Positions 1-26,136 of a stretch of DNA of 43,656 nt are shown in pieces. Numbering within the stretch: the first letter of the stretch is position 1; each line of letters opens with the position of its first letter. The stretch comes from a virus. The stretch lies in the IMG/VR virus record IMGVR_UViG_3300010352_001565, positions 179,055 through 222,710 of that record. One strand, given 5' to 3'. The translations under genes were made by a program, and so were the position numbers. Below the pieces are notes generated by a model. It was not told the origin of the DNA, made no database searches, and saw only the letters and a program-made list of their open reading frames with translations.

Positions 1-34
1 AATCGTCCCTGGCGCAACTATCGCGCGTGTCGCG

Positions 35-316: not shown

Positions 317-353
317 ATAAATGTTTACAATTTCATGACGGCATGATAGAGTT
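311..353 (+). promoter_or_regulatory. conserved phage promoter copy 1 (variant -10)
   Basis: The sequence is agcaaataaatgTTTACAatttcatgacggcaTGaTAGAGT. It shares the A-rich upstream block, the TGTTTACAA -35 and a TGnTAnAGT extended -10 with the six other copies. The ATG of the first gene (359) lies 7 nt after the -10. Confidence 0.55.
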
Positions 354-358
354 CTGCC

Positions 359-1354: not shown

Positions 1355-1357
1355 CTT

Positions 1358-1732: not shown

Positions 1733-1738
1733 CGTGAT

Positions 1739-3157
1739 ATGCCTCGGACTAAGCTAACATACGGAATCGAGTTGGAGTGCACTAAGCTCATGCCCAACGC
1801 GGCTGAGATCATTGCACGCCGCGAGTTTGACAACCATTACGACAACTCCATCAAAGGAAACGATGGCGAGGATCTCCCGCGCGGAGAAGGTGGCGGATCT
1901 GAACTCGTCACCAAGCCTCTGATCATTGAAGCTTACTTGCACGATCGCAAAGCCGTGCTGAACGACCGGAACGATACCAAAGCGGTTGTCCGCGACCTGT
2001 GCAGCTGCGCGCAGTCCGTAAACAAATCGTGTGGTCTGCATATCCACATCGGCTGTCCGCTGGAGAGCACTGGGCGTAGCACTCAGATGAGGAGCCGCTG
2101 GAATCCAGAGCAGACGCGGACGTTTCTCGCCATCGCGCTTGCTCTCGAGGATAAGATGTTTGACCTCTGCCCTCCGAGCAGAAGGAACAACAGCTACTGC
2201 AAAACGATTCGCGAGTTATACACCAACGCAGAGCTTGAGGCCTTTCACCCCACGGGAGAAGTTGTCGCCCGTAAGTGGGACAACGCCAAGCGCTACTGCT
2301 GGTTTAACATCGTCGAGACTCTCCGGATTGACAACGTCCCGTCGTCTCCAGGAACCGTCGAGATTCGCATGCTTGGAGCAGTGCGCAGGTTTGAATACAT
2401 TTGGTCCTGGATTAACCTCTGGCTCAAGATCGGAACTTATGTGGCATTTGCTACTCCAGCTTCTGCGATAATGAGCTGCGTACATTCTGGGGCGCTAGAC
2501 GAGGACATTGAGGCAGTGAGGACCGCGAAGAATTCGAAAGTTTCTCCGGCCGCTGAGCGGTCTCCGAGCATTTCGCGAATTGACGACGAGCATCCGAGAA
2601 ACGGCAGGTCTTTGCCTGTGTTCAACCCTACTCACCAAGCGTGGGAAATTCCAGCGACTCCAAGCTGGTCAGAGTTTCCTGGTGGTGCTGAAGACGGCGG
2701 ATACTCGGGAACGCAGATCAGATACTCTGACAGTGCGGAGACCGACAGCCAGCGGCAACAACGAATGGTTCAGGATTTAGTGAACGCATCTCAGCGGTCT
2801 CGCGAGGTGGCCCAAGCGGCTCCAGCTCCTGCCGCAACTCCAGCTCCTGCCGCAACTCCTGCTCCCGCTCCAGAACCCGCACCTTTACCCCCTCCTCCGC
2901 AACGACGACGAGGGCTTAGGCCGATTCAAGAGCGCATTCGCGATGCTGTTCGAGCTGAGCGCGCAAATGCACAGCAGGAGAACGCGCAGCAAGAGGAGAA
3001 CGTTCAATCAACTCCTCCATCCTACCGCGTGGTTGGAACATCCACCGGTCGATTAACTTCTTCCGGATCGAACGTGACTAGCAGACCGCGAGAGGAGAGC
3101 GAGGGCGGAGACCACTTTAGCGTCCTTGACTACGATGGCTTTGGCGAGCACTATTAA
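1739..3157 (+). CDS. amidoligase paralog B with a Pro/Ala-rich low-complexity C-terminal extension
   Basis: Carries YGIELECT, CGLHIHIGC and VEIRMLGAV. In the amidoligase / gamma-glutamyl-cysteine-ligase-2 fold these correspond to the metal-binding Glu pair, the His pair and the ATP-binding Arg. About 150 C-terminal residues are AAPAPAATPAPAATPAPAPEPAPLPPPP-like, encoded by an 18-bp tandem repeat at about 2821-2870. Confidence 0.6.
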   Translation: MPRTKLTYGIELECTKLMPNAAEIIARREFDNHYDNSIKGNDGEDLPRGEGGGSELVTKPLIIEAYLHDRKAVLNDRNDTKAVVRDLCSCAQSVNKSCGLHIHIGCPLESTGRSTQMRSRWNPEQTRTFLAIALALEDKMFDLCPPSRRNNSYCKTIRELYTNAELEAFHPTGEVVARKWDNAKRYCWFNIVETLRIDNVPSSPGTVEIRMLGAVRRFEYIWSWINLWLKIGTYVAFATPASAIMSCVHSGALDEDIEAVRTAKNSKVSPAAERSPSISRIDDEHPRNGRSLPVFNPTHQAWEIPATPSWSEFPGGAEDGGYSGTQIRYSDSAETDSQRQQRMVQDLVNASQRSREVAQAAPAPAATPAPAATPAPAPEPAPLPPPPQRRRGLRPIQERIRDAVRAERANAQQENAQQEENVQSTPPSYRVVGTSTGRLTSSGSNVTSRPREESEGGDHFSVLDYDGFGEHY

Positions 3158-3202
3158 ATAGTTGCAAAAAAGTGTTTACAATTTTCCGTGGCGTGATATA
3201 GT
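3155..3202 (+). promoter_or_regulatory. conserved phage promoter copy 2
   Basis: The sequence is aatagttgcaaaaaagTGTTTACAattttccgtggcgTGaTATAGT. An ATG at about 3209 opens a 14-codon leaderless mini-ORF that overlaps the start of the GATase gene. Confidence 0.65.
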
Positions 3203-3240
3203 AACAATATGAATTTTGAATTTAACCAAAAGGATAAACG

Positions 3241-4278
3241 ATGTGCGCAATAATTGGTTGGGCCGGAAAGATCCCAAAAGGCCTGCTGACCCGCATGCTG
3301 ATCGGGGCTGAAACCCGAGGCAAGGATTCGACTGGACTCGCTTTTCGAGCAGTTGAAGATGGGAAGACATGCAATCTATGCTATCGCCACATCGTCCCTG
3401 CCCGCACCTTCGTTGACATCCACAAGGACTTCGTGGGAGACGCCCGGCGTTCATTCCGCGGCATTGCTCACACTCGCAATGCATCTCCTGGAATGCCGAT
3501 CGATAACTCGAACGCGCACCCATACGTCTATCCGTGGGAAAACATGGGCAAGTATTACTTTGCGCACAACGGGCGAATCCAAAACTGGAAAGTTATCAAA
3601 GCGGAGCAGATTGAAATCTACTCCAGAGAGCTGAACGAGCTGATCTCAGAATTTGTGGCGCTTACGGCATCTGGCGAGAAGCCAATGACCGCTGAAGAGG
3701 TTAAGGTCGTCCTGACTGCCCTTGCGAAAGCTGAGCGCGAGCCTGTCTCAAAAGAGCAGGATGCTCTGAAAGCACTCGCTGAGGACAAGTTCAACGCCGC
3801 TCAGGGAATCGCCGCCCGTCTTCGCTACGTCGAAAATGCGACAACAGACTCGATGATTCTCGGACCGTGCATCGAGAACCGCGACTTCAGCGAAGTTGAC
3901 GGTTGCATGGCGCTGGTCTGGATGAAAGCAGACAACGTCTATACCTTCAGGAGCGCTAAAGAAGCTGTTGCGGCGACCGTCGTTTGGAAATACAAAAAGC
4001 CAGCGTCCGGAGAACCGGCAGACGACCAGCTTGTCACCATTGTTGCCAGTACGAAAGAGATTATCGAGAAGTCATTCGACAAAATCGCGGACGCTGTTGA
4101 CTCTGACATCGCGTTCATCAACTACGACGAGGGGCGCATTTACCGGCTTATGCCCAACACCATGGTTGATGAAGGGCGCGTTCCTGTCCACCAGGCAATT
4201 GAGGACGAGTTTTCATCATCGGTCGTTGAAACCGAAACCGCTGAGCAGATCAAAATTGAAGACGCGGGAACCAAATGA
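3241..4278 (+). CDS. class-II (Ntn-hydrolase) glutamine amidotransferase-like protein
   Basis: The N-terminus is MCAIIGW, so Cys becomes residue 1 after Met removal, the nucleophile position in GATase type 2. It also has HTRNASPG and YFAHNGRIQNW (an HNG-I-N-like motif). An AAGGA RBS lies 8 nt upstream. Confidence 0.6.
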   Translation: MCAIIGWAGKIPKGLLTRMLIGAETRGKDSTGLAFRAVEDGKTCNLCYRHIVPARTFVDIHKDFVGDARRSFRGIAHTRNASPGMPIDNSNAHPYVYPWENMGKYYFAHNGRIQNWKVIKAEQIEIYSRELNELISEFVALTASGEKPMTAEEVKVVLTALAKAEREPVSKEQDALKALAEDKFNAAQGIAARLRYVENATTDSMILGPCIENRDFSEVDGCMALVWMKADNVYTFRSAKEAVAATVVWKYKKPASGEPADDQLVTIVASTKEIIEKSFDKIADAVDSDIAFINYDEGRIYRLMPNTMVDEGRVPVHQAIEDEFSSSVVETETAEQIKIEDAGTK

Positions 4279-4664
4279 TCTCTGAGCTTCATCCAACTAT
4301 CAAGTGCATCAAGTGCGGCTCTCTTGTAGAGATGGCGCGCGTCCGAATCTTCGGCGCGCACGATCCATCAGGGCGCACTTGCGCGGCGTGCGCCCACAAA
4401 GCGCAGCAGACGACGCTTGAAAGGATACGCGAGAAGAAAGCTCAAGCACAGAAAGTTCCTGACCACGAGGATCGCAAACCAAGGCAGCTGTCTTTCGGTA
4501 ACCAGATGCTAGAAGCGTTTGGCATTCCAGCGACCGCCGCTGCGGTTCGGCGCCAAAGGAAGTGGTCTCCCACCGTCTACGTATTACGGAATGGAAGATG
4601 GATACCAAAAAGCCAGGACGTTGGTAAGCCAAAAATCAATCGGATCTACGACGATGAACATTAA
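4275..4664 (+). CDS. small zinc-ribbon protein (CxxC...CxxC)
   Basis: An ATGA overlap with the GATase stop indicates translational coupling. CIKCGS ... CAACAH form a Cys4 ribbon. Confidence 0.5.
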   Translation: MISELHPTIKCIKCGSLVEMARVRIFGAHDPSGRTCAACAHKAQQTTLERIREKKAQAQKVPDHEDRKPRQLSFGNQMLEAFGIPATAAAVRRQRKWSPTVYVLRNGRWIPKSQDVGKPKINRIYDDEH

Positions 4665-5529
4665 AGAGCTTGCGTACGGCGCGTTTCAAAGTGGGATCTA
4701 CAAAAAGAACATCCACTACCTGTTCGACAACGACGACTCTATGCAGTTCATGATGGTCAAGCAGATGGCTGGGTCGCCAGGCATGACAACATGGATCACA
4801 CAGCGCGCCTATTCGAAAGCAGGAATCCAGATTCAAGTGGAGAAGGACGTCTCGCTGGATCTCGAGGCAACTGACTTTGTCGCTGAGGCGGCGACGGTTG
4901 AGAACGTCCAGTGGCCATCCCCTGTTATCGAACTCTACTTTCAGGACCCAAAGCTTCCGACCATTCTGCTGATGAAAACGTCGCCAGCGCAGGTTGCCGA
5001 GTGGTTTCCGTATCTTGAAGTCGCGCTAGAAGCTGAGTGGTACATCACCGCTTTGATTCAGGAAGGCTCGAATGAGCTGGGGAAAGTGCTCAGCGTCCAG
5101 CTAAAGCCAGATATGTGGGACGAGTTTCTGACAACCGGAGAAACCGAGAAAATGGCAACCGGTTTGATGAGCTACAACTTGTCTGAGGTGGACAACGCAT
5201 CGATGTCCTACATGCTGAACCTGGCGCTCAAGGTCCTTGCTCTCGCGTCCATTCCAGGGTACAAACCCACGCCGATGTCTCGAAAGCAGATGCACGAGGG
5301 AAAACCAGGCGTCAAAGGACGGCCGAACATGCCGTCATTCCTGCTCTCGTACGGCCAAGCTCCGCTTGCTCCTCCTGTACGGCACGAAACCTCCGGGCGC
5401 CTGTTCAAAGGACGTCGCGGGCACATCCGGTGGTACATGGACCCCCGCTATACGAACCGGAGATTCACCTGGGACTTCATTAGGCCTGTCAGGGATCCAA
5501 AGACAGGAAAGTATCCAGACAGGAGTTAA
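4654..5529 (+). CDS. hypothetical protein (291 aa); the ORF-track start at 4519 is probably too far upstream
   Basis: The in-frame ATG at 4654 (MNIKELAYG...) avoids a 145-nt overlap with the previous gene. I recognise no domain. Confidence 0.45.
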   Translation: MNIKELAYGAFQSGIYKKNIHYLFDNDDSMQFMMVKQMAGSPGMTTWITQRAYSKAGIQIQVEKDVSLDLEATDFVAEAATVENVQWPSPVIELYFQDPKLPTILLMKTSPAQVAEWFPYLEVALEAEWYITALIQEGSNELGKVLSVQLKPDMWDEFLTTGETEKMATGLMSYNLSEVDNASMSYMLNLALKVLALASIPGYKPTPMSRKQMHEGKPGVKGRPNMPSFLLSYGQAPLAPPVRHETSGRLFKGRRGHIRWYMDPRYTNRRFTWDFIRPVRDPKTGKYPDRS

Positions 5530-5535
5530 AAGCTC

Positions 5536-5553
5536 CCCAGGAACAATCCTGGG
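5536..5553. terminator. hairpin between convergent genes (CCCAGGA-acaa-TCCTGGG), likely a terminator for the minus-strand operon
   Basis: A 7-bp GC-rich stem sits immediately after the stop of the minus-strand gene and is followed on that strand by AGCTTTTAA. Confidence 0.4.
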
Positions 5554-5769
5554 TCACTTCACCATCATCTTGGCGATCTCTTCGCACCCGCGAACTAGTG
5601 CCACAAGCGCTAAGGATGCAATCACAAGCATCAGTAGCGACACCGCAGTCGACTTCCTCCTTTTTTCCATGGCTAGCTTTGGGTTCTCAGCGCACTCAGG
5701 ACACAGCTTACCGTTGGGTAATGGAGACGTCCTGTCACAGATCTCGCACGGGCCGTGAATTTCAACCAT
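5554..5769 (-). CDS. small zinc-ribbon protein with a C-terminal transmembrane helix (71 aa; the track ORF 5554-6033 is trimmed to the internal ATG)
   Basis: The ATG at 5769 lies 1 nt after the helicase stop. CEIC...CPEC is followed by the hydrophobic stretch LLMLVIASLALVALV. The longer 159-aa version overlaps the helicase by 260 nt. Confidence 0.4.
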   Translation of the reverse strand: MVEIHGPCEICDRTSPLPNGKLCPECAENPKLAMEKRRKSTAVSLLMLVIASLALVALVRGCEEIAKMMVK

Positions 5770-5770
5770 A

Positions 5771-7189
5771 TTATTTGAGCTCCTCAGGGACATCTTCACC
5801 CGGATCTTTCTTTTCAGTCCGGCTGTTTTTGCCTTTTCTGCGAGGCTTATTATCCTCTTCAGCGGCATCTGGGTCGTATTCGATCTCGCTGTCGATCGTG
5901 ATCTTGAAAACGGTAGGATCGACCTTGCCTTTAAAGTGGCCGCAAGCTGCTCCGTGACGGTTGATGAAGATGAAGAAACGAAGCACGTTTTGGACATACT
6001 CCTCTTCAGTGGAGCAGAGACCGATCGCCGCATCCACGATACCTGCTTTTTCGAACGCGCCCTGGAAGCTCGTCATATTTGGAACGGCTGCGTCAACCGT
6101 GTCGCGATTGCAGCGGTCGGGCATGATCACGCAGCAGCCAAGCTCCTTACCCATCGCGCGGGCTTCGGTATAAATGTCAGACTGCTGACGATGGTCCTTA
6201 ATGTCTTTGGTGGCGCTTGGCTTGATCGTTTCAGCGTAGTCGATGAATATCGCTTTTGGGTGCAGATTGAACTGTTTGATGCACGTCTTGGCGTGCGCCT
6301 TGATGTTGGCGATTGTCGCCTGTTTTGCAGCGAAGTCCTTGAAGAGAAGGTTTCCGGCTACGAGCGACCCGAACTTCTCGTGGCAAGCTTGCTTGAACTT
6401 TTCAGGATTCTCATACATGTAGTCCATCGTCTTGCCAGACAAATTAGACAGGGCGCGGCAGATGGCCAACTCCTTTGAAATTTCGCAGGTGTAGTAGAGG
6501 ACATCCTCGTGGATTAACGGGCTGATCATGTTCAGCGCCAGATTCAAGCACACCGCCGTTTTGTAGCGTTTAGGAGGAGCGAGTGGAACGATGAGCCACC
6601 CGGGATGCCAGCCATTTTTCCAAATGCCGTCTAGGAGCGGATAACCCGTGCGGATACCAAATCCTTTAGCAGTAATGTTGTCGACCGCATAGTCGGCGTG
6701 GGCATGCAGCACCCATCCAAGATCGTCAAGATTCTGACCGATAGAAAGAGCCTCTTCAAATATCTTAACGATGTTAGTCTCTTTGATCTTGCCCTCTTTT
6801 ATCGAGTCGATCGATTTGCGCACGGCGTTAACCACGGCTCGTTCGCGGCAGAAGTCCACGGTCTTCTGCACCACATACTCCTTATCTCCAGTGTCCATGT
6901 CCCTGAGCCGCGTGATGTAATCTGCGACGCGGTTGCTGGAATCTTCCTCACCAGCTTCAATGTGGCGAAGATACTCGGAGGACATTTGGTTGAGAGTCTC
7001 CCATCCCGGAAACCTCCCGTACTGCTCGTTGTATTCGATGGCTACCTTTGCCACGGCAGTTGCTTGAACACCGGAGAAAAACTTCGGCTCGACAATCTGT
7101 CCATAGCACTGAAAATCCTGCGGGTGCTTGATAAGGCAACTGAGCAGGAGGTCTTGAAATTCTGCTGTAAATCCAAACTGTTCCATCAC
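5771..7189 (-). CDS. DnaB-like replicative helicase (RecA-fold)
   Basis: It has a DnaB-like N-terminal domain, the loop GYPLLDGIWKNGWHPGWLIVPLAPPKRYKT (LD...G...G.L.h.A with a degenerate Walker A KT) and a Walker-B-like AIFIDYAE. Confidence 0.6.
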   Translation of the reverse strand: MMEQFGFTAEFQDLLLSCLIKHPQDFQCYGQIVEPKFFSGVQATAVAKVAIEYNEQYGRFPGWETLNQMSSEYLRHIEAGEEDSSNRVADYITRLRDMDTGDKEYVVQKTVDFCRERAVVNAVRKSIDSIKEGKIKETNIVKIFEEALSIGQNLDDLGWVLHAHADYAVDNITAKGFGIRTGYPLLDGIWKNGWHPGWLIVPLAPPKRYKTAVCLNLALNMISPLIHEDVLYYTCEISKELAICRALSNLSGKTMDYMYENPEKFKQACHEKFGSLVAGNLLFKDFAAKQATIANIKAHAKTCIKQFNLHPKAIFIDYAETIKPSATKDIKDHRQQSDIYTEARAMGKELGCCVIMPDRCNRDTVDAAVPNMTSFQGAFEKAGIVDAAIGLCSTEEEYVQNVLRFFIFINRHGAACGHFKGKVDPTVFKITIDSEIEYDPDAAEEDNKPRRKGKNSRTEKKDPGEDVPEELK

Positions 7190-8211
7190 ATCACTTTCTT
7201 CAAAAAGACTTCGTTGCGGCTGTTGTAGTATTCAAGCGTCCAGTATTGCTGGATGGCGTAGCCAATGCGGCGCCAGAATTCGAATGAATCATCTACAGTT
7301 TCTGTCGCGATCTCAAAATCAGAGGGAGAGAATCCGTGCTGATTAAGAACTGTCTTGACAGCAATCGGCATCATGCGCTCTTTCGTCTTGAAAACATACT
7401 GAGCTCTCCTGTTGCTTCTCTTTAGTTCCTTCAAAGTCTGACAAACGCTGAACCGGTGGCGCTGGACCATCGGAGTCCCAGTAGGCTCATTAAGGTGCGG
7501 GGTAAGAATGGTCTCAACATAGCAGGCGTCGGTGGCAAGCCAGATGGGGCTAAGAGAAAGCTCCTGCATATTGAACAGCATTGGAGCAGGATCTCCAGAC
7601 GACCTTATCTTGTATCCCACGATGAAACTTCCAGCGATGATTTCGCTATTGAGCATCTGTTTCTCGGCGTCGGACGTTTTCTCTTTTCCGAGAAGTGTGT
7701 CAATGGCCTCAAGGTCAAACGTCCCGTACTTCTGGACGCACACAGAGCGGTACAGCTCAAGCCGGTGATTGGCGCGATCTCCGAACAGCATGTTGGCGTA
7801 AAACTTCCTGTCTGGAGAAGCCTCGCGGTAGCCTATCATGTTGGTCAGGATGTATAGGCGAAGAGAGCAACCGGCGTCGCTAGCAGCCTGCTCGACTCGC
7901 TGCTTTGCATCTTTTACCCGAAGTAGAGAGTCACCTTTGGTTTTGTAGACAGTTTCGTAGCAGGATTCGTACAGCATCGCCAGACTGTCGGCCTCTGGGT
8001 CTTTAACTGGGAGATCTCGAAGCCCTTTTGGAACAAAGTTGAATCTCAGTTTGTCTAAAGGAATGCGTCCTTTTCGCCGTCCAAGAGCTTTCTGGCACTC
8101 TTCAGCATGTTCGCACTTTGAGCAAAGTTCGTCTTTTCCGAACTCGAATCCGTAGCAGGGGCGTGGAGTTTGTATGGGGATGCGTTCAAGCATTGCGTTC
8201 TTTGAGAACAT
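7186..8211 (-). CDS. helicase-associated protein with an N-terminal Cys4 zinc ribbon; possible primase
   Basis: It is coupled to the helicase by an ATGA overlap at 7186-7189. The zinc ribbon is CYGFEFGKDELCSKCEHAEEC. I found no clear TOPRIM or AEP motif, so the primase call rests on context only. Confidence 0.35.
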   Translation of the reverse strand: MFSKNAMLERIPIQTPRPCYGFEFGKDELCSKCEHAEECQKALGRRKGRIPLDKLRFNFVPKGLRDLPVKDPEADSLAMLYESCYETVYKTKGDSLLRVKDAKQRVEQAASDAGCSLRLYILTNMIGYREASPDRKFYANMLFGDRANHRLELYRSVCVQKYGTFDLEAIDTLLGKEKTSDAEKQMLNSEIIAGSFIVGYKIRSSGDPAPMLFNMQELSLSPIWLATDACYVETILTPHLNEPTGTPMVQRHRFSVCQTLKELKRSNRRAQYVFKTKERMMPIAVKTVLNQHGFSPSDFEIATETVDDSFEFWRRIGYAIQQYWTLEYYNSRNEVFLKKVM

Positions 8212-11200
8212 GGAAAGAGCCGCTCGAAAGCCAAAGCAGATATACCTTGACCCTCAGGGACAGCAGTTGAGTCTTAAAGATGTCGATAAGAAATGGCGAG
8301 ACACCATCATCTATCACAACGGAACTGAAAATCGTGGCGGAAACATCGTCACCACATTCGACCCAGAAAACCCGCTAGGAACGCGGCTCCTAGAGCCTGG
8401 TCCTGATTCTCCGGTGTGCGCTAAGTGCGCGCTTTACGAGCAAGGAGCTCAGCACCCGTTCATGAAGCCGTTTGGTGCCGAGGACCCACTAGTGACGGTG
8501 GTATTTGACTCGGTGTCTGGAAAGGAAGACTCGCGCGGCGAAATCGGATCTGATGGGCCTCCAATGCTGATTCGGAAGCTGGTTCAGGAAATGGGGTTTG
8601 ACGCATCTCGAATACGATGGGCGCCGGCGACTCTTTGCTCCGCCAGGACTGGAAAGCTTCCAAACTACTCGACTAAGGGAAACCACTGCAAAATCCATCT
8701 TATTCAAGACATCGAGCAGCACCCACCGAAGATGATCATGACCGTTGGAAGCGCCGCTCTCGGACTTCTGTCGTTCAAATCGAATGCTCAAGACTGGGGT
8801 GGCCGCGTGCTGACGTATCGCGGATGGCCGGATGACTGGCTGACAGATCCTGATTACATGCTTGACCGACCTGATCCGCGCGATCCAAAGACATCTCTCA
8901 CGCGCGGACATCCCATCATGGGAAAAGCTCCAGAAGGCTTCCGAATTCCCATCGTTCCGATTCAGAGCCCGCGCATGGTTTACATGACGCAAAACCAGAA
9001 TGTCATCAAGCGCTGGAAGTCTCACGTCAAGACCGCGTTCGAGATGGCACTTCAGGGAGTTCCTCCTAAGGTTTACGACCGCGCCTATTGGAACATGAGC
9101 GTCGATCCAGACGAGATTGCTGAAAATCTCCTCTACTTGATCAACCACCCAGGAACGCTCACCAGCTACGACACTGAAACAAACGGCGTCAGACCTTGGG
9201 CAGTGGACGCTGCGATCGTGTTCATGATGTTTCGATGGACTGATGAAGATGGCAACCCGAAATCGATTGGCTTCCCGTGGAACTACCCGAACAGCCCGCT
9301 GATCAACTATCTCCCAGAGCTCGCGCCGCTCGTCCTTGAAGCTCTGTATGCCTCAGACCTCATTGGACACAACATCACGTTCGACGTCTTGTTTACCTAC
9401 GCAAACGTGCCTGGGGCCAACCTGGTTAAGCTAGCGAATGCTGCAAAATGGGATACCTGGCATATGGCATACGTCATGCGCCAGCAGCGCGGAACGTTGG
9501 GCTTGGAAATGATCGCTTACGAGTGGGTGCCTGACCTTGCGGGCTACGAAGAGGACATGACCCTCTTGATTGAGCTGCTCAGAGACCTGTTACATCCGGG
9601 AGCCGGAAAGGGAGGCCACTACGCCAACTGCCCGCGCGATAAGTGGGACACCCACCTCAAGCCCTACGTCATGGGTGACGTCGAGGTGGCTTACTGCGCA
9701 AAACCGAAGATTGAGGCCAAGCTTGGAACTGCCAGAACTTACCGAATGCCGCTGGCAGACCCAACCCGACGCGGTCGATTTCGCTTGTTCGAGCCGCCAC
9801 CCCGAAGCTGGGTTTATCCGAACGTTGTATCTCCAGCCGCGCGGATGCTCATGAATATGATGGGTCGCGGCATGCACGTGGACATCGAGGAGCTAGCGCG
9901 CCAGGAAGACATTTTTCCGAAGAAGATTAGAGAAGCTCGCGACAAACTTCGAGCGGTCGACCCGAAGATTATCGAGTGGTGCCAGCAGATGGAGGAGACC
10001 GAGCCTGGATGGGAGCTTGACCTTGAAAAGAAAGAGCACCTCAAAACAATCCTGTTTGACAGCAGACTTCTAAATCTTCCAGTCAATCGCATCACTGAGA
10101 GCGGGCAGAAGCTCTTTGGAGATACCCCAGAAGACTTGCAAGGGCTTCCGCGCGAGAAGCTGGTCGAATACGCGGCGCTGGACAAGTTCACGCTGAACAT
10201 GCTGTCAGTCGAGCATCCTCAGGTTCGGCCTCTCCAGGAATACAAGAAAATATTCAAGGCGTATACCACCTACATTCGCCCACTTCGCAACGCTTTCTCA
10301 GACAAAAAGCATGGTGGCGTTGATAAGAAACGCCGCATGGAGATACAGCACCTTATGCGAGACGGCTGCGTGCACGCCAGCTTCAAGCTGACTGGAACGC
10401 GCGGAGGACGCTTGAGCTGCTCTGATCCGAACCTTCAGCAGCTACCTCGCGACGGTTTAATTAAACGCATTTACACCAGCCGCTTTGGAAAAAGAGGGTG
10501 CGTCTACCAAGGCGACCTTTCTCAGATCGAATTGCGCCTTCTGGCTGCAGCTTGCGGAGACTCCTCAATGGTGGATGCTTATCAGCGCGGCATCGACCTG
10601 CACGCCCTGACTCACAGCAAGATTTACAGCAAGGCATACGAGGAATGCACCAACGAGTTCATGGAATGGCTGCAGGCGCACGGCAGAGACTCTGAAGCAA
10701 AGAAAGTCAAGCTCGAGCGCAAAGCCGCAAAGGTCGTTAATTTCTTGACAGGCTACGGTGGAGGAGCTTTCGGTCTACAAACCGCTCTGGCAAACGACCA
10801 GATCTACAAGACGCTTGAAGAGTGCGAAGCTCTGCTTGAGGCGTTTTTCGATGGCTATCCAGCAATGCGCCGCTACCTGTCTTACTACAAGGACTTCATC
10901 CAGCAAAATGGCGTGGCCGTGTCGATTCTCGGACGCGTTCGCATCTTTGAAGAGGTGTTTGGCGATGATCCTAAGGCGAAAAACAAAGCGCTGCGCGCTG
11001 GTTGCAACCACCTGATTCAGTCCACTGCTTCTGACTTGATGCTTATCTGCTTGACGGCTATCGAGAACATCTTGACGAACGAGGGCCTTGAATCTCAGAT
11101 GGTCTGCACGGTGCACGACTCTCTTGTGGTTGACGCTGTGCGCGAAGAGCTGCCTGTTGTCCACGACATTGTCTACGGGGTGCTCAACAACATCCCTGAC

Positions 11201-11365
11201 GTGCTCAAGCTCACATTTGGTGACAACTATGACACGTCATGGTTGTCATTTGTTCCTCTGGCTGGAGATTGCGAAGTTGGTCTCAACTACCTCGATGCGA
11301 AGAAAGTTCCTCAGCACGGCGAGATTGACTGGGACAAGCTTTTGGCACCAGCAGCCGCTCACTAA
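8174..11365 (+). CDS. family A DNA polymerase with an N-terminal family-4 UDG-like domain and a 3'-5' exonuclease domain
   Basis: The exonuclease motif is SYDTETNG. The polymerase motifs are RLSCSDPNLQQLPR, KVVNFLTGYGGGAFGL (motif B) and VHDSLVVD (motif C). The N-terminal ~250 aa resemble UDG family 4 (GEIGSDGPPMLIRKLVQEMGF...WAPATLC, HPP), but the GEAPG-type motif A is degenerate (DSVSGKED). Confidence 0.85.
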   Translation: MGMRSSIAFFENMERAARKPKQIYLDPQGQQLSLKDVDKKWRDTIIYHNGTENRGGNIVTTFDPENPLGTRLLEPGPDSPVCAKCALYEQGAQHPFMKPFGAEDPLVTVVFDSVSGKEDSRGEIGSDGPPMLIRKLVQEMGFDASRIRWAPATLCSARTGKLPNYSTKGNHCKIHLIQDIEQHPPKMIMTVGSAALGLLSFKSNAQDWGGRVLTYRGWPDDWLTDPDYMLDRPDPRDPKTSLTRGHPIMGKAPEGFRIPIVPIQSPRMVYMTQNQNVIKRWKSHVKTAFEMALQGVPPKVYDRAYWNMSVDPDEIAENLLYLINHPGTLTSYDTETNGVRPWAVDAAIVFMMFRWTDEDGNPKSIGFPWNYPNSPLINYLPELAPLVLEALYASDLIGHNITFDVLFTYANVPGANLVKLANAAKWDTWHMAYVMRQQRGTLGLEMIAYEWVPDLAGYEEDMTLLIELLRDLLHPGAGKGGHYANCPRDKWDTHLKPYVMGDVEVAYCAKPKIEAKLGTARTYRMPLADPTRRGRFRLFEPPPRSWVYPNVVSPAARMLMNMMGRGMHVDIEELARQEDIFPKKIREARDKLRAVDPKIIEWCQQMEETEPGWELDLEKKEHLKTILFDSRLLNLPVNRITESGQKLFGDTPEDLQGLPREKLVEYAALDKFTLNMLSVEHPQVRPLQEYKKIFKAYTTYIRPLRNAFSDKKHGGVDKKRRMEIQHLMRDGCVHASFKLTGTRGGRLSCSDPNLQQLPRDGLIKRIYTSRFGKRGCVYQGDLSQIELRLLAAACGDSSMVDAYQRGIDLHALTHSKIYSKAYEECTNEFMEWLQAHGRDSEAKKVKLERKAAKVVNFLTGYGGGAFGLQTALANDQIYKTLEECEALLEAFFDGYPAMRRYLSYYKDFIQQNGVAVSILGRVRIFEEVFGDDPKAKNKALRAGCNHLIQSTASDLMLICLTAIENILTNEGLESQMVCTVHDSLVVDAVREELPVVHDIVYGVLNNIPDVLKLTFGDNYDTSWLSFVPLAGDCEVGLNYLDAKKVPQHGEIDWDKLLAPAAAH

Positions 11366-11412
11366 AAATAGTTGCAAATAAATGTTTACAAATTTTAGTT
11401 TCGTGATATAGT
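11363..11412 (+). promoter_or_regulatory. conserved phage promoter copy 3
   Basis: The sequence is aaaatagttgcaaataaaTGTTTACAaattttagtttcgTGaTATAGT. The -10 sits inside the palindrome CGTGATATagtcATATCACG. The ATG at 11422 is 9 nt after the -10. Confidence 0.7.
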
Positions 11413-11421
11413 CATATCACG

Positions 11422-11643
11422 ATGAGCACAGCAAACGTGGAAAACATGACATACGAGCAGCTTCCAAAGCAAGCTCGAATCATTGCCCAAATTTTAGTCC
11501 TTCATCCTGACGCTACCCGCGCCAAGCTTGAGGAGCTCGTTCAAGCGAGGATCACAACTCGCCAGCCTATCGCACGCGTGATCAACTACTATTGGTCCCT
11601 GCTTGTCAAGCTCGGATACACCACGCAACCTGTCGCCGCCTAA
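11422..11643 (+). CDS. small hypothetical protein (73 aa), first cistron of the operon that contains amidoligase C
   Basis: The start is leaderless, directly after promoter copy 3. Confidence 0.5.
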   Translation: MSTANVENMTYEQLPKQARIIAQILVLHPDATRAKLEELVQARITTRQPIARVINYYWSLLVKLGYTTQPVAA

Positions 11644-11646
11644 TTT

Positions 11647-12708
11647 ATGCCTAACAACGGACCCATACCTTCATACGCCAGTGAGAGACTCATTGGACTC
11701 GAGCTCGAGTACGACGCAAAAACCACCAAGCTCAGCTTGCCAACGACGACACCTTCTGGCTGGTCGCGGCAGTCTGACGGCAGCCTGCAGAATGGCGTTG
11801 AGATGGTGCTCAATCCTCCTCTGACGCTGACAGATGCAACTCCAGTGGTCAAAGAGTTCGCTGACGCTTTCAACCGAGCCCGGACAAACACCTTCAGCAG
11901 CGGCGGCTTCCACGTTCATGTTCAGGTTGCGGATTACACCGAGCATGACGCCGGAAATCTCGCTCGCCTCTACCACCATTTTCAGACGCAGATTAACCGG
12001 TTGCTTGGAAAATCTCGCCACAACAACCACTACTGCCCTCCGTTTACGCACTCCGTGACAGATGCCGATCTTTCGTCGAGATTTAATCTCGGCTCGCTTG
12101 CCAGCACGAGAGCCAGCGCCAAGTCTGCCCGCAAATACCAAGTGGTGAACTTCGCAATGATGCGGTGCACTCGCCACAGCGACCGCACGGTGGAATTTCG
12201 CCAAGGAAGCACCACAAAGCGGTTTGAGTGCATCATTGGCTGGGCGGCATTCTGCGTTGCCATGGTTGAAATCGCCAAGAACGACGCCATGACCAGCGCT
12301 TACATCGGTCAGCAAGCGTCGTGGGAAAACTTCGTGCAGATGCTTCGCGACCACGAATCCATGGTTGGTGCCAGCCACATTGCTGACTGGGTGGTTTGGA
12401 GACGCGAATATCTCGAAGAGACACCGAGCGACGAGCTCATCTCAAAAGCAGTTGCCGCTATGGGACGCCGTCCTCGCGGAATCTTTCACATCTCGCGCGC
12501 TCTCGACATCAACTTGCCGCTGAGCGAGCGGACTCTAAACGCCGCCGTTTCTCGCGGTCTGATTGCTAAGATCGGATCGAAATACCAAGCAAAGTTTGTC
12601 TCATTCGCGGGGTCAGATCTTGAGCAGCTTCAACAAGCCGCGGAAGCCAGGGAGGCAGCTATGCCCGCTGACCGCTCAGGCGAGGTTCTACCTGGAGAGG
12701 AACAATAA
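11647..12708 (+). CDS. amidoligase paralog C
   Basis: Carries IGLELEYD, GGFHVHVQV and VEFRQGSTT, the same three-motif architecture as ORFs 359-1354 and 1739-3157. Confidence 0.6.
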   Translation: MPNNGPIPSYASERLIGLELEYDAKTTKLSLPTTTPSGWSRQSDGSLQNGVEMVLNPPLTLTDATPVVKEFADAFNRARTNTFSSGGFHVHVQVADYTEHDAGNLARLYHHFQTQINRLLGKSRHNNHYCPPFTHSVTDADLSSRFNLGSLASTRASAKSARKYQVVNFAMMRCTRHSDRTVEFRQGSTTKRFECIIGWAAFCVAMVEIAKNDAMTSAYIGQQASWENFVQMLRDHESMVGASHIADWVVWRREYLEETPSDELISKAVAAMGRRPRGIFHISRALDINLPLSERTLNAAVSRGLIAKIGSKYQAKFVSFAGSDLEQLQQAAEAREAAMPADRSGEVLPGEEQ

Positions 12709-13067
12709 TGTTTGAGTCGCGAAAAGTATTCGGCGCCCTCGTTTTGACGCGCTGGCAAGACTTTCCTGAAGGTGGAGAAACCTTGGAAAGCCTTCAGAAC
12801 AAGCTCTACGAGTACTACCCGAGCATTCCGCGGCATGATCTCGAGTTGTTCCGAGAGGGGTTTCAGCAGTATCCGATGTGGGGCATGGCTTTTCCGACTG
12901 GCGGTGGGTTTCAGTTCAGGCACAAGCGCGACAGCGCAGCTCCAAGCCAGGATCCCGCGCCCGTGTCTTTAAGAGCAGTTGAAGAGCGCTTATTGAGCCA
13001 GATTCAGTCGCGGGTTCATGTCCCTGATCTTCCTCAGAACCCAGTAATGCCATGGGAGGAAGTGTGA
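12708..13067 (+). CDS. hypothetical protein (119 aa)
   Basis: A TAATG overlap couples it to the upstream gene. Confidence 0.5.
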   Translation: MFESRKVFGALVLTRWQDFPEGGETLESLQNKLYEYYPSIPRHDLELFREGFQQYPMWGMAFPTGGGFQFRHKRDSAAPSQDPAPVSLRAVEERLLSQIQSRVHVPDLPQNPVMPWEEV

Positions 13068-13316
13068 TTATCTCCAGCGCCCGTCAGAATGAGCCGCAAG
13101 ATCGTCGATCCACTGGGCAATCTCAGCGGCGTTCCCGTCTATGCGGTATCGGTTTAGCCACTGCTGGATCAATTCAACCACGTCTGACTGCTCTCTTAGC
13201 TGCATCCAGTTATTCTTCCAGTCAAGGCGTCCGACTTCTTGCTCCACGAACGAGCATGCCAGATCCTCAACCGAGTCCATGGACGCAATCCTTTCAATAA
13301 TGTCACGAGCAGCCAC
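13068..13316 (-). CDS. hypothetical protein (82 aa), a lone minus-strand gene
   Basis: Its composition is protein-like and balanced. The overlapping plus-strand ORF (13052-13300) is S/R/P-rich junk. It fits exactly between the flanking plus-strand genes. Confidence 0.35.
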   Translation of the reverse strand: MAARDIIERIASMDSVEDLACSFVEQEVGRLDWKNNWMQLREQSDVVELIQQWLNRYRIDGNAAEIAQWIDDLAAHSDGRWR

Positions 13317-13331
13317 AATCTACCTACAACT

Positions 13332-13790
13332 ATGAAACTCAGCGATCTTAAAGACGAAAACACATATTACGTCCAAAAGGCGCTGGATGACGGCAAGTTT
13401 CCGTGGGCCAAAGGAAAAGACCTCAAACGACACGGACACAGCCGGAGTCTGCGCCGGCTAAAGTCGGAAGACGAGAAAATTCCAGAATACTACTATCCCG
13501 TGCAGGTTGATGCGTCGGTCATCATCGCCGTCAAGCCATTCAGCAAGGAAGAGCGCGATGAGTTTCGAATGAAGTTTGTTCGCCCGAATTGGGAAACGGT
13601 GCATATGCACCAGACCACCCCGTTCGAACCTGTCTACGAGTCGATTCCAATTCCGAACCGCATGCCGAAAAAGAAGAGGTCAAGCCACTCTGCCAGCGTC
13701 ATCGTTGACGACGAGGAGTTTGACACCCTGGGAGCCATAAGAGCAGGAGCAGCTGTGTTCAAGCAGCTGCTTAAGTCGCACTGTTCTTAA
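13332..13790 (+). CDS. hypothetical basic protein (152 aa; the track ORF 13239-13790 is trimmed to the ATG at 13332)
   Basis: MKLSDLKDENTYY... The trimmed start avoids overlap with the minus-strand gene. Confidence 0.45.
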   Translation: MKLSDLKDENTYYVQKALDDGKFPWAKGKDLKRHGHSRSLRRLKSEDEKIPEYYYPVQVDASVIIAVKPFSKEERDEFRMKFVRPNWETVHMHQTTPFEPVYESIPIPNRMPKKKRSSHSASVIVDDEEFDTLGAIRAGAAVFKQLLKSHCS

Positions 13791-13796: not shown

Positions 13797-13955
13797 TGGA
13801 AGACAAAAATTTTGTACTCGTAAGAGACGGCAAGCGTATTTCTGAAAACCTCACCCAGAGCGACGCCACGGCTAAAGCCAACGAAATCAACAGCCGGCTG
13901 AACGAATCTGCTGGAGAAAAGCCCGTTGAAATCAAATCGGTTGTCAACGGTTAAT
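13797..13955 (+). CDS. small ORF (52 aa) not in the track
   Basis: MEDKNFVLVRDGKRISENLTQSDATAKANEINSRLNESAGEKPVEIKSVVNG. Its TAATG overlaps the start of the next gene, indicating translational coupling. Confidence 0.3.
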
Positions 13956-14694
13956 GCCTACCCAGCAACTTGACTTGGGGCTTCTACCTTCGGAACCGCA
14001 GCCCGGATCTGAAGGTGTTGTCGTCCCCACAGAGCTGATTGCTCCGGAGAACGCTGCGGACACCAACGCTCAGTTTCCTGACCACGTCGTGGATCAGCTT
14101 CTGACGCCGTGCACCGCCATCATCAGAGACACTCTCACAGAGCAAAACGGGGCTCCTAACCTCGAAAACCCACAGGAACCCCCAGAACATCCCCAGGCTG
14201 ACAAGCCTCTCCAGGTGATAGAGCAGGTGGTTGGAGCCATAAAAGATGGCCGAGACCTGTCTGCCATGAAACCGGACGTGCTCCGGTTGATCTCTAACCA
14301 GGAAGACAGAGCTCAGTTGATCTCTAACCTCCTGATGACCCACGACTACACCCGGGTTGCGAAGTACGCCAAGGCGCGAGAAAAGCTCGAAAACACCATC
14401 CTCGAAGCAATCGACCGCGGGCGTCTTACACCCACTCAGACCCTTGCCTTCTTGAAGCTCATTTCTGAGGAAACTGAAGTCATTTCTGGGCGCATTCGTG
14501 GCGGCGCCACGTCAGTCAAGGACCTGATGGCTCTGATAAATCGAGCAGATTACCAGATGCAGATGTCTGAAGGTGACATTCATAAGAAATTCACAGGAAC
14601 GTCGCCGCAAGGCAGAGAGATCATCAGGCGCTTAATTGGAAAGCTGTGCAAAGCGACAGCCTCTGACGCCAGACGCGACGTGGTTAGCGACTAA
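13954..14694 (+). CDS. putative terminase small subunit (assigned by position only)
   Basis: It lies immediately upstream of the large terminase and is coupled to it by a TAATG overlap. I recognise no motif. Confidence 0.3.
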   Translation: MPTQQLDLGLLPSEPQPGSEGVVVPTELIAPENAADTNAQFPDHVVDQLLTPCTAIIRDTLTEQNGAPNLENPQEPPEHPQADKPLQVIEQVVGAIKDGRDLSAMKPDVLRLISNQEDRAQLISNLLMTHDYTRVAKYAKAREKLENTILEAIDRGRLTPTQTLAFLKLISEETEVISGRIRGGATSVKDLMALINRADYQMQMSEGDIHKKFTGTSPQGREIIRRLIGKLCKATASDARRDVVSD

Positions 14695-16727
14695 TGAGTC
14701 CCACTGAGATTGAAAATGTCCTACTGCGGATCCTTGAAGGCGACAACGCTGACGAGCTAATCCGCAGCTTGTCTGAAAAAGAGCAGGGTCTCTTCTACAA
14801 CATTGTCACCGAGATTCGAAACGGTGCAGCACCAGAGCTTCTCGACGACCTGTGGAAAATCGATTACACCCGTCGCCCGCCGTCGATTGAAGAGTTTATC
14901 ACTGATCCGTACTGGCTTGGAAACACCATGGCCGCTACGGAAGAAAATCCCGGTATCTTTCCTGCTTGGAAAGAAGTGTTGCTTCAAGACTTTGATCTCG
15001 AGTCGCGCATCCACAACCTTGTCATTACAGGTTCACTCGGAACTGGAAAATCGTGGGTGAGCAGCGGCATCTTTCTTTACAGGCTGACACTTGCCACGCT
15101 TCTGAGAAACCCGCAGAACTTTCTAGGCTTGTCAGCAGGTTCAACTATCGTCTACATCGTCTTATCATTGAGCAAGGCGGTCGTTCAAGAAACGGTCTTT
15201 GGCGATGTCCAGAACTTCATGGGACACAGCGCCTACTTTCTCGAAGACTGCCATTTCAATCCAGAGCTGAAGTACAGCAATTTCAGAATTCCGCTAGGAA
15301 AAGGGATCATCCTTACGGCCGGTTCAAAAGGACAGCATATCATCGGTCGTAACACGATGGGTGTCTTCCTTGACGAAGGTAACTGGCGCCTTGAAGCAAA
15401 CCCGGACATGAAGGCGTACAAGCTGTACGACGAAGTTCGGACTCGTATTAAAAACCGCTTCCAGAAGGTCGCTGGGTTTCTACCCGCTATATCGATACTG
15501 TCCTCGTCTGCCCGCGATGAGTCGAGCTTTACTGAAAAGGTCATCTCAGACATCAACGCCATCAAGGACCCCAACGCCGAGAAAGTCTACCGCTTCGCAG
15601 TCTATAAGGTCAAACGCCACCTGCTCAAGCTTAAAAATCGCTGGTTCAAGGTTGCGTACGGTATCAAAAATGTTGATCCCGTTGTGCTTAGCGGTTTTTA
15701 CCTCGAAAACGGTACCCCGATAACCAACGATCCTGAGAATCCTGTTGAGGCGCCGCCTGATGGCTGTCAGACTGAGCTCGTTCCTGAGGACTATCTTGAC
15801 GCTTTCAAGCGCAACGCCAAATCAGGTCTGCAGAACGTCTGTGGTATCAGCACTGGAGGAAGCCACCTGCTTCTCTCGTCAACCATCGACGTGCTGAAAT
15901 GTGTTGAGCTCGGAGAGCGCTCAGGCGTGGTTAACCCGGTCCGCGGCAGAATGGCGCTGATTCCTATCTCCGACGAAGACGACCGTGAGATCTGGGACTA
16001 TCTTGACCACAAGTCATTCCTGACTTTGCGCCATAGCCAGGTCATCCCTATCAGGCATCCTTCAGCTACTCGGTTCGCTCACTTGGACTTGGCTACCGCT
16101 ACCAAAGCAGGTCTGGCAATTTGCCATCTTGTGGGCATGCAGAAAGTCGAGGGCCTTATCAAAAACGGCCAGATTTACGACGAGTACCGCCTGATCGTCG
16201 AATTCGACTTCATCCTCACAATCACTGCCGGTCGAACAAAGCCAATCAGCCTTGAAAAGATCCAGAAGTTCTTTTTCTGGCTCCGCGGCGAGTGCGGATA
16301 CCACTTCGGCAAGATAACGGCTGACACCTACCAGTCAGCCATGCCTCTTCAGATGATGTCTTCTAGAGGGTTCGAAACTGACGTGCTGTCCATTGACCGA
16401 AAGAAAGCTCCGTACTACGGGCTGCGGACTGGCATCGAGGAACTTCGCTTGCGCCTGTACCACCAGGGCGAAATGCTCACCGAGTTCGAGAAGCTGGTTG
16501 ACGGCCCAGAAAAAGTTGACCATCCTCCTGAAGGTTCGAAGGATACGACTGACGCGGTCTGCGGCGCATACACCAACGCCATCAACTCCGAGAACATTTC
16601 TGACTCCCAGTCTGGCACAGATCCATCGCTGCACGCTTCTTCGTCAGCCGATAAGCACGAAGAAGTTTCTCCCATATCCATTCCAATTCCGCGTCAGCCA
16701 CGCAAGTCCCAAGTGTTCCAGGCTTGA
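14694..16727 (+). CDS. terL: terminase large subunit (ATPase plus nuclease)
   Basis: Walker A is LVITGSLGTGKSW and Walker B is VFLDEGNW. The C-terminal region is RNaseH-like (HLDLATATKAG, D-rich). Its 677-aa length is typical. Confidence 0.85.
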   Translation: MSPTEIENVLLRILEGDNADELIRSLSEKEQGLFYNIVTEIRNGAAPELLDDLWKIDYTRRPPSIEEFITDPYWLGNTMAATEENPGIFPAWKEVLLQDFDLESRIHNLVITGSLGTGKSWVSSGIFLYRLTLATLLRNPQNFLGLSAGSTIVYIVLSLSKAVVQETVFGDVQNFMGHSAYFLEDCHFNPELKYSNFRIPLGKGIILTAGSKGQHIIGRNTMGVFLDEGNWRLEANPDMKAYKLYDEVRTRIKNRFQKVAGFLPAISILSSSARDESSFTEKVISDINAIKDPNAEKVYRFAVYKVKRHLLKLKNRWFKVAYGIKNVDPVVLSGFYLENGTPITNDPENPVEAPPDGCQTELVPEDYLDAFKRNAKSGLQNVCGISTGGSHLLLSSTIDVLKCVELGERSGVVNPVRGRMALIPISDEDDREIWDYLDHKSFLTLRHSQVIPIRHPSATRFAHLDLATATKAGLAICHLVGMQKVEGLIKNGQIYDEYRLIVEFDFILTITAGRTKPISLEKIQKFFFWLRGECGYHFGKITADTYQSAMPLQMMSSRGFETDVLSIDRKKAPYYGLRTGIEELRLRLYHQGEMLTEFEKLVDGPEKVDHPPEGSKDTTDAVCGAYTNAINSENISDSQSGTDPSLHASSSADKHEEVSPISIPIPRQPRKSQVFQA

Positions 16728-16742: not shown

Positions 16743-17054
16743 GTGATAGTCAACCTGCCACCCTATAGCATGTTTGCGTCTACTCCGGTCTACCAGGCCG
16801 GCGAAGACGTGGTATTCGGTCTGATGAGGGACGCTGTCATTCCTGACGCCACCGACACCATCTTTACCGTTACTCAGGCTTCTGAGTCGAGGTTCGATCT
16901 AATTTCGGATGCGTTCTATGGCACGCCGCATCTCTGGTGGGTCATCGCACGCGTGAACAACATTTTAGACCCGCTTTTGGGCGTGGCGGCTGGTACAACA
17001 CTTAGGATTCCAACCCGCGAGCGGATGTCGCGCGAAGGAGTGCTGAACGGATAA
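16743..17054 (+). CDS. LysM-like / tail-protein-X-like small protein
   Basis: FTVTQASESRFDLISDAFYGTPHLWWVIARVNNILDPLLGVAAGTTLRIP resembles the LysM / P2 gpX pattern. Confidence 0.3.
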   Translation: MIVNLPPYSMFASTPVYQAGEDVVFGLMRDAVIPDATDTIFTVTQASESRFDLISDAFYGTPHLWWVIARVNNILDPLLGVAAGTTLRIPTRERMSREGVLNG

Positions 17055-26092: not shown

Positions 26093-26136
26093 TTTTTGCA
26101 AAAAAGTGTTTACAAATTTCCGAAACGTGATATAGT
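26093..26136 (+). promoter_or_regulatory. conserved phage promoter copy 4
   Basis: ttttttgcaaaaaagTGTTTACAaatttccgaaacgTGaTATAGT. The ATG at 26143 is about 8 nt after the -10. Confidence 0.7.

Follow-up and report, generated by a model that had tools for sequence, protein, structure and literature searches.

Amidoligase C of an uncultured phage: one of four apparently ancient paralogs in a probably ancestral position behind the DNA polymerase gene

In a stretch of 43,656 nucleotides of viral DNA (IMG/VR virus record IMGVR_UViG_3300010352_001565, positions 179,055 to 222,710; hereafter the window), a gene for an amidoligase, here called C, lies apart from two other amidoligase genes, A and B, behind a promoter of its own and a small first cistron, S. 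The question raised by this locus is whether C is a stray duplicate that has come under separate control, or a regular member of an older gene set. A sequence-only reading of the window had described C as a third paralog detached from its cluster and proposed separate timing or regulation, or a distinct substrate. Our comparison with related loci points to membership of an older gene set, and we assign a probability of roughly 60% to a reading in which C is an ancient paralog in its ancestral position, belongs to a co-expressed promoter class, has had S inserted in front of it, and acts on a substrate linked to nucleic acid. The arrangement as such, i.e. a paralog set apart behind its own promoter, is ordinary conserved gene organisation. 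The elements in question are the following:

11364-11421, plus strand: promoter copy 3, with an A/T-rich upstream element TAGTTGCAAATAAATG, a -35 box TTTACA at 11385-11390 and a 16-nt spacer
11404-11405 and 11407-11412, plus strand: the TG of an extended -10 and the -10 box TATAGT of promoter copy 3, scoring 10/12 in a consensus scan
11402-11421, no strand assigned: inverted repeat CGTGATAT-AGTC-ATATCACG, spanning the -10 box and the predicted start site
11422-11643, plus strand: S, the first cistron, 73 aa, with its ATG 9 nt past the -10 and a predicted leader of 0-3 nt
11647-12708, plus strand: amidoligase C, 353 aa, lacking a Shine-Dalgarno sequence, with its ATG 3 nt past the TAA of S and in the same frame
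11647-12366, plus strand: catalytic domain of C, about residues 1-240
12418-12600, plus strand: C-terminal winged helix-turn-helix of C, about residues 258-318

The assignment of the second frame to the amidoligases, as a paralog of A and B, is upheld by its match to the Pfam family PF12224 Amidoligase_2 (E 4.5e-13; 50.1 bits against a gathering cutoff of 22) and to the PHROG amidoligase families (E 9.5e-21); no NCBIfam model matched C. In a structure model computed from an alignment of 22 homologs (pLDDT 90.4), residues 1 to about 240 match the fold of ATP-dependent carboxylate-amine ligases, for example the YbdK-like enzymes, glutamate-cysteine ligase and the glutamine synthetases, and the domain displays the catalytic fold that characterizes the latter two. 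Foldseek searches of predicted viral structures placed phage amidoligases at the top, the best of these being the amidoligase of Pseudomonas phage tf (E 2.5e-11). The residues E19, E21, E52, H89, R124, E183 and R185 are invariant both in 22 homologs of C and across all four paralogs of this phage (A, B, C and a fourth, D, described below), and the positions invariant across the four corresponding clades, in C numbering, are G17, E19, E21, G50, E52, G87, H89, R124, C130, N168, E183 and R185. The catalytic role of these residues is suggested by the fold rather than by residue-by-residue mapping; given their invariance across the four clades, all four paralogs look catalytically competent.

The C-terminal domain has a winged-helix topology like that of MarR and ArsR (helix, strand, helix, helix, beta-hairpin wing), is kept in all full-length homologs and is mildly basic, its net charge averaging +2.9 over 61 residues. 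We considered and set aside an assignment to Z-alpha, the Z-DNA/Z-RNA-binding class: its signature residues, the Asn and Tyr of helix 3 and the Trp of the wing, are not conserved in the family, and we accordingly class the domain as a generic winged helix. A recognition element of ribosomally synthesized and post-translationally modified peptides, which would call for a PqqD-like fold match together with a neighbouring gene for a precursor peptide, was likewise rejected for C. Thus, as judged from conserved residues and modelled structure, C appears to be a catalytically intact ATP-dependent carboxylate-amine ligase of the glutamine synthetase/glutamate-cysteine ligase fold, fused to a winged helix.

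The other amidoligases of the window, and the amidotransferase that accompanies them, are these:

308-1354, plus strand: promoter copy 1 and amidoligase A; -10 box TAGAGT at 347-352, A reading frame at 359-1354, with the ATG exactly 6 nt past the -10
1739-3157, plus strand: amidoligase B, 472 aa; PF12224 match with E 1.3e-9; a proline-rich, low-complexity (disordered) C-terminal tail
3154-4278, plus strand: promoter copy 2 and a class II (Ntn) glutamine amidotransferase; reading frame 3241-4278, N-terminus MCAIIGW

Amidoligase A matches PF12224 with an E value of 5e-21 and carries an N-terminal WGR domain (PF05406, E 3.6e-5), a domain predicted to bind nucleic acid (PMC4275035). Orthologs of B were found in the related loci L006, L009, L022 and L027. 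The amidotransferase matches the Pfam families GATase_6 and GATase_4, and an NCBIfam model matches it to the N-terminal region of GlmS. The count of three paralogs in the sequence-only reading stood as far as A, B and C go; however, the same phage encodes a fourth, D (326 aa; 2623-3603 of the locus L017), just upstream of window position 1 and in a leaderless position behind another promoter copy. Dating of the duplications by identity and phylogeny had also been proposed, and both measures indicate that they are ancient: A, B and C are 24-29% identical to one another over part of their length, in comparison to 40-61% for orthologs in related phages, and a neighbour-joining tree of 28 sequences from 15 loci resolves four clades, one each for A, B, C and D. 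C thus appears to be one of four ancient paralog lineages rather than a recent stray duplicate. A distinct substrate for C, as originally suggested, is plausible in light of four old clades with different appended segments: A has the WGR domain, B the disordered tail and C the winged helix. The four amidoligases and the class II amidotransferase make up a single gene set that is conserved in this family of uncultured phages, and the persisting linkage of such genes across rearranged genomes indicates that they belong to one pathway. Loci with relatives of C needed an alignment-based search; single-protein searches of viral contigs, both for C and for S, recovered nothing.

The position of C was described correctly as lying between the DNA polymerase and the packaging genes, the flanking features being:

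8174-11365, plus strand: family A DNA polymerase (Pfam DNA_pol_A, E 1e-57), directly upstream of promoter copy 3
14694-16727, plus strand: large terminase subunit (tblastn matches to annotated large terminases at 26% identity, covering 92% of the protein, E 2e-42)

The start of C is 6.1 kb past the last gene of the cluster and 8.5 kb past the end of B, but the word "detached" is misleading, as the same placement after the polymerase gene is shared with eight other distinct phages, in which the polymerase gene is followed by a TTTACA-type promoter and then by C, and elsewhere C stands beside the amidotransferase. The order of polymerase and C is seen in L006, L009/L010, L012/L013, L021, L022/L023, L024 and L025, and in most such relatives the stretch from the stop codon of the polymerase gene to C holds a TTTACA box and a -10 box with a spacer of 16-17 nt between them. 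The ATG of C follows the -10 at a distance of 6 nt in L009, L022/L023 and L026, of 7 nt in L024 and L025, of 8 nt in L006 and of 12 nt in L012, so that in most relatives C itself is predicted to be a leaderless or nearly leaderless first gene. In L009 the gene call is too short on account of the missing ribosome-binding site, and the true N-terminus (MLDAPIPT...) aligns with that of C (MPNNGPIPS...). The order of genes is otherwise fluid: in L022/L023 C is followed directly by the amidotransferase, and L027 has a D-like gene, C, B and the amidotransferase in one uninterrupted block. From these comparisons, the place of C after the polymerase gene, behind its own host sigma-70-type promoter, appears to be ancestral.

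The element that distinguishes this lineage is the first cistron. The sequence-only reading rightly placed C behind promoter copy 3 and a 73-aa first cistron, and S is a member of a small protein family. A word-indexed search of 5.8 billion proteins returned S alone, while an exhaustive HMMER search of 1.84 billion representative proteins recovered 6 true homologs, P0026 (58%), P0027, P0028, P0030, P0031 and P0032. A further candidate, P0029, of 1627 aa with 6 matched stretches, was rejected, being made up of immunoglobulin-like repeats. The family is typified by the signature LPKQA..IA ... L ... T(K/R)QP..R...YY ... G, with L14, Q17, A18, I21, L36, T46, Q48, P49, R52, Y56, Y57 and G65 being invariant, and on this conservation the frame at 11422-11643 is best taken as a real gene. 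The N-terminus is also conserved between the window (MSTANVEN) and L011 (MTTNNVDE), which argues for the ATG at 11422 as the real start, rather than the downstream GTG or ATG chosen by some gene callers. An AlphaFold model from the single sequence (pLDDT 83) contains helices at residues 16-27, 33-43 and 50-64, and its best fold matches, weak as they are (E about 1), are mostly to winged-helix DNA binders; the model thus describes S as a putative three-helix, helix-turn-helix-like protein. S has no match in Pfam or PHROG, and it shows no similarity to the C-terminal domain of C or to the small reading frames upstream of C in L007 and L008. The 5' end of its mRNA has no significant predicted folding (z -1.6).

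The contexts of the homologs bear on the proposal that the 73-aa protein is a partner of C, which they do not support. In two close relatives, L011 and L014, S is first behind the same promoter type, with its ATG 6 nt past the -10, and an unrelated 100-aa frame intervenes between S and C. In L019 and L020 S-like genes occur behind the same kind of promoter, at gaps of 11 and 9 nt, with no amidoligase nearby, and their upstream sequence ends in ...TCACG(AT)ATG, as in the window. The gene for P0032 comes after a UvrD-type helicase. Furthermore, most phages carrying C are without S, and we therefore interpret S as a lineage-specific insertion and not as an obligatory partner. In the reading we prefer, S would have been inserted between the promoter and C in this lineage, taking the leaderless slot, and C would follow by coupling. 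Such coupling is probable, given that the ATG of C is only 3 nt past the stop codon of S and is preceded by no ribosome-binding site.

Another view is that S has no functional tie to C. It would be a small early gene of separate origin that happened to land next to the promoter, for example one for host takeover or for the regulation of other targets. We give this a little less than even odds. The homologs found away from amidoligases, the unrelated frames that part S from C in two relatives, and a comparison of the profiles of the S and C families, which returned nothing, are all in its favor; it has to contend with the fact that three of the six contexts with data put S one or two genes upstream of C, and with the tight in-frame 3-nt junction in the window, which probably couples their translation.

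The junction has a further peculiarity in that S and C, lying in one frame, are separated by TAA TTT, and read-through of a single stop codon would yield an S-C fusion. This is probably a coincidence, as the suppressor tRNA of the window reads UAG and not UAA. That tRNA, at 27012-27086 on the plus strand, has the anticodon CUA (amber suppressor), is labelled tRNA-Pyl by ARAGORN and scores 64 bits against the Rfam tRNA model. Genome-wide recoding of TAG was rejected despite its presence, for TAG terminates 4 of the 33 called genes in the window; selective read-through of TAG in some genes is possible.

What the gene set does can be approached from its attached domains and its neighbours. The winged helix of C, the WGR domain of A, the location in the replication module, the shared promoters and the neighbour of D all point to a nucleic-acid target, and in our preferred reading the paralogs would perform different amide-forming steps on a nucleic-acid-linked substrate. 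The neighbour of D is a 271-aa protein of the thymidylate synthase family, which precedes D in L017 (the pair spanning 1755-3603) and again in L026, a viral contig of 230 kb. Among proteins of solved structure it comes closest to CMP and dCMP hydroxymethylases (E 2e-13 and 2e-12), with thymidylate synthase itself following at 2e-6, and it has Asp at the position of Asn177 of thymidylate synthase. According to established work on thymidylate synthase and the T4 dCMP hydroxymethylase, Asp at this position is a mark of cytosine specificity. Genes for glycosyltransferase-like proteins are present in the window (36149-37747) and in L017. The most likely form of such a pathway would be post-replicative hypermodification of DNA bases that starts from hydroxymethyl-cytosine and draws its ammonia from the amidotransferase. 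Clusters for DNA hypermodification are reported to contain genes for amidoligases and amidotransferases, with their role unknown (Lee et al. 2021, PMC8989533). Of the thymidine hypermodification pathway, neither the signature kinase 5-HMUDK nor the transferase aGPT-Pplase turned up when about 45 proteins of the window and L017 were compared with Pfam, PHROG and NCBIfam, many of these proteins being without any match and no dedicated search having been made.

In its most specific form, this scheme would have A to D, the amidotransferase, the dCMP-hydroxymethylase-like enzyme and the glycosyltransferases build an undescribed amide-linked cytosine hypermodification, carrying an amino acid, a peptide-like group or an amidated sugar acid; the winged helix would hold C, and the WGR domain A, on DNA, and S would be a repressor acting on the inverted repeat. 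We offer this elaboration tentatively, with the balance clearly tilted against its holding in every part.

Slightly further from favor is the view that the target is protein, and we consider it unlikely. Here the amidoligases would attach amino acids or a small tag to proteins of the phage or the host, in the manner of the Pup ligase PafA or as proposed for amidoligase and amidotransferase operons, the winged helix would recognise a peptide or protein, and S or ORF119, the frame following C, would be candidate substrates. Winged helices can indeed act as peptide-recognition elements, the genes are interleaved with those for baseplate and terminase proteins, and the Pfam description of the family predicts a peptide-type ligation. 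Nevertheless, there is no conserved small substrate gene: S is missing from most phages with C, the C-termini of its homologs are not conserved, and ORF119 has no homologs. A, moreover, bears the WGR domain, a predicted nucleic-acid binder. With PafA and the depupylase Dop, C shares the fold alone (12% identity); a gene for a Pup-like tag ending in Gly-Gly-Gln/Glu was not found near C in any locus, nor was there a proteasome context.

The promoters are central to the proposal that C is under separate temporal control, whereby its own promoter, the inverted repeat and the different first cistron would give it another time or level of expression than A and B. Promoter copy 3, with an expected transcription start near A11419, belongs to a family of repeats of 45-61 nt with at least 7 copies in the window, and it is 76-91% identical to the copies at 3154, 26088, 29484 and 43160. 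The same type recurs upstream of C or S in L006, L009, L011, L012, L014 and L022-L026. The -35 box, spacer and extended -10 of copy 3 are the same in copy 1 (before A), in copy 2 (before the amidotransferase) and before D, relatives without S or the palindrome use this one promoter type for C and its paralogs (in L006 and L009 it stands before A or B, the amidotransferase and C), and read-through is also possible, since a terminator scan found no terminator-like site between the polymerase gene and copy 3. Given this shared promoter class, we predict co-expression of A, D, the amidotransferase and C, and most likely the amidoligase set is expressed together with the replication and nucleotide-metabolism genes.

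The "perfect palindrome" previously described on the -10 consists of two perfect 8-nt arms, CGTGATAT at 11402-11409 and ATATCACG at 11414-11421, but its 4-nt centre, AGTC, is asymmetric. CGTGATAT occurs 7 times in the window against 0.6 expected; 6 of these are on the plus strand, 5 of them being the -10 regions of promoter copies, and the sole minus-strand copy is the right arm of the inverted repeat, the left arm being promoter consensus. No second equally good site exists in the window, the next best having 3 mismatches. We infer that the inverted repeat is a candidate operator; it is unique to copy 3 and, lying over the -10 and the start site, is the only regulatory feature specific to C. 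S, with its putative helix-turn-helix-like fold, may bind this repeat over its own promoter, which would lend separate control some support. So would the shifted start codon: S was called leaderless, and its ATG is indeed close to the -10, but at 9 nt rather than the 6 nt of copies 1, 2, 4 and 5 (347-361, 3197-3211, 26131-26145 and 29527-29541). All told, the identity of the core promoter elements makes separate control of C decidedly unlikely, and the earlier suggestion to this effect is not supported.

The least probable alternative, a role in small-molecule or auxiliary metabolism (gamma-glutamyl-type or other amide metabolites, or host nitrogen assimilation), draws on the best fold matches being small-molecule ligases (YbdK-like, glutamate-cysteine ligase, glutamine synthetase) and on the interpretation of the amidoligase and amidotransferase genes of Phage-ZRK32 as auxiliary metabolic genes (eLife 2024, PMC10945688), for which the evidence is indirect. 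We consider it very unlikely, as bulk metabolism would hardly account for four diverged paralogs of which two carry binding domains of nucleic-acid type, and as the genes are embedded in the replication module, with which they share promoters.

Returning to the reading of C as an ancient, co-expressed paralog with S inserted before it and a nucleic-acid-linked substrate, several observations weigh against one or another of its parts. As for position, C comes after glycosyltransferases and not after the polymerase in L007 and L008. For S, the 9-nt distance of its ATG from the -10 makes a 3-nt leader as likely as a truly leaderless mRNA, and relatives do not keep the perfect inverted repeat in front of S, where it is matched at 5/6 in L014 and L020 and absent from L011. 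On the side of the substrate, the hydroxymethylase-like gene and D both lie outside the window, and at 18 other viral loci the hydroxymethylase-like family occurs while no amidoligase is encoded within 8 kb of it, which confines the link between the two to this lineage (L017, L026). Winged helices also bind peptides and proteins, and the amidoligase fold, as modelled, would be equally compatible with ligation of proteins or metabolites.

Comparison with known systems leads us to regard C as a new form of a phage enzyme type that is known but uncharacterised. The same amidoligase family and fold are found in LUZ24-like Pseudomonas phages (tf, UFV-P2, PaP3) and many others, and in the LUZ24-like phages the amidoligase is paired with a class II amidotransferase in an early/replication module (PMC3890496). 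These cassettes differ from the present set in that identity is only 14-21%, that there are one or two paralogs in place of four diverged ones, and that here C has a winged helix and A a WGR domain and the genes are spread over several transcription units, all of which begin with a copy of one promoter. With YbdK/GCS2-type ligases, glutamate-cysteine ligase and glutamine synthetase, C shares the Glu, His and Arg residues typical of ATP/metal-dependent acyl-phosphate chemistry, but identity is 7-17% and the winged helix is extra. Phage hypermodification clusters (for hydroxymethyl-cytosine in T4; for thymidine in M6, ViI, SP10 and phiW-14) share with this phage a hydroxymethylase-like gene, glycosyltransferases and amide-forming enzymes near replication genes; in contrast to them, the hydroxymethylase-like gene lies beyond the window here, and no chemistry is known for the amidoligases in those clusters. 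A paper on a Klebsiella "amidoligase" fimbria was discounted, as the enzyme is of the ATP-grasp type and of another family. No assigned substrate for amidoligase and amidotransferase cassettes, and no experimental work on any PF12224 member, was found in the literature searched. Finally, the predicted layout of the transcripts recalls known leaderless mRNAs (lambda cI from PRM; actinobacteria and their phages), with the ATG at or near the predicted start and no Shine-Dalgarno sequence, but here it is systematic, affecting the first gene of nearly every promoter copy across the whole phage family.

This pattern can be followed along the window. Copy 4, with its 6-nt gap, opens a 71-aa zinc-ribbon reading frame (26143-26358), and the ATGs at the same distance at 3209 (before the amidotransferase) and 29539 (before a DNA ligase) open mere mini-frames of 13-14 codons. 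Further copies with 6-nt gaps precede D and a 195-aa gene in L017, and in L006 and L009 the ATG of the amidotransferase itself is 6 nt past the -10, placing its MCAIIGW start at +1. Most genes of the window lack a recognisable Shine-Dalgarno sequence, exceptions including those at 3241, 12708, 17056 and 29701. Judging by this, the host probably makes weak use of Shine-Dalgarno sequences and tolerates initiation without them, also on leaderless mRNAs. The promoter copies also share TTGCAAAnAAnTGTTTACAA upstream of the -35 (11369-11392 and in other copies), an imperfect palindrome of the form TTGYAAA-N6-TTTRCAA, which may act as an UP-like element or bind a second regulator; L014 and L020 have something similar in the form of TTGCA(A/C)A, and most relatives have a T-tract alone.

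Downstream of C, the transcription unit continues and is bounded as follows:

12708-13067, plus strand: ORF119, the third cistron, its ATG overlapping the TAA of C (TAATG), with GGAGAGGA upstream
13068-13280, minus strand: convergent 70-aa reading frame, called as a gene in L001, L003 and L004

ORF119 has no match in Pfam or PHROG, no homologs of it were found outside this phage, and it is unlike the genes downstream of C in relatives. The convergent frame bounds the S-C-ORF119 unit, and no RNA element of Rfam was detected in the region. The window is part of a larger contig, L015-L018 being 100% identical to window 1-11354 and reaching further upstream. A megablast of 11300-13300 against isolated phages gave zero matches, so no close cultured relative exists among them, and even the best matches to the DNA polymerase share only about 25% identity with it. 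A scan of 185,579 species genomes with the C alignment returned nothing, and hence neither a prophage nor a clue to the host.

A number of other features were noted in passing. An NAD-dependent DNA ligase with all domains present is encoded at 29701-31668, a UvsX-like recombinase at 41246-42643 and a gp25-like baseplate wedge protein at 16770-17054; a 787-aa baseplate-J-like protein ends at position 130. The frame at 39732-41243 holds a cluster of direct repeats at 40542-40898 (families D3 and D8, 27-46 nt in length), which point to a repetitive protein segment. In L021 (4217-9655) the polymerase gene matches that of the window in three pieces, with gaps of about 1.1-1.2 kb that suggest inteins, or introns with homing endonucleases. 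L011, the closest relative of this phage, encodes at 2397-3218 a sigma-70-family protein with regions 2 and 4, situated between a homolog of the window frame 13332-13790 and the following genes. No counterpart was detectable at the equivalent place in the window, where the frame 13954-14694 was tried as an equivalent and rejected; the frame 24647-25120 has a weak match to sigma region 4 and nothing more.

Annotations of such cassettes go back to 2009 and extend to many phages, among them candidates for phage therapy from the LUZ24 group. The near-uniform layout of promoter and leaderless first gene makes this phage family a possible model for leaderless expression where the host has low Shine-Dalgarno usage. 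The possible link to DNA hypermodification is the most valuable lead, and this phage offers a tractable case for it, with four diverged paralogs, two of them bearing nucleic-acid-type domains and one lying beside a cytosine-hydroxymethylase-like gene. If true, it would provide the first biochemical role for the widespread phage amidoligase and amidotransferase cassette.

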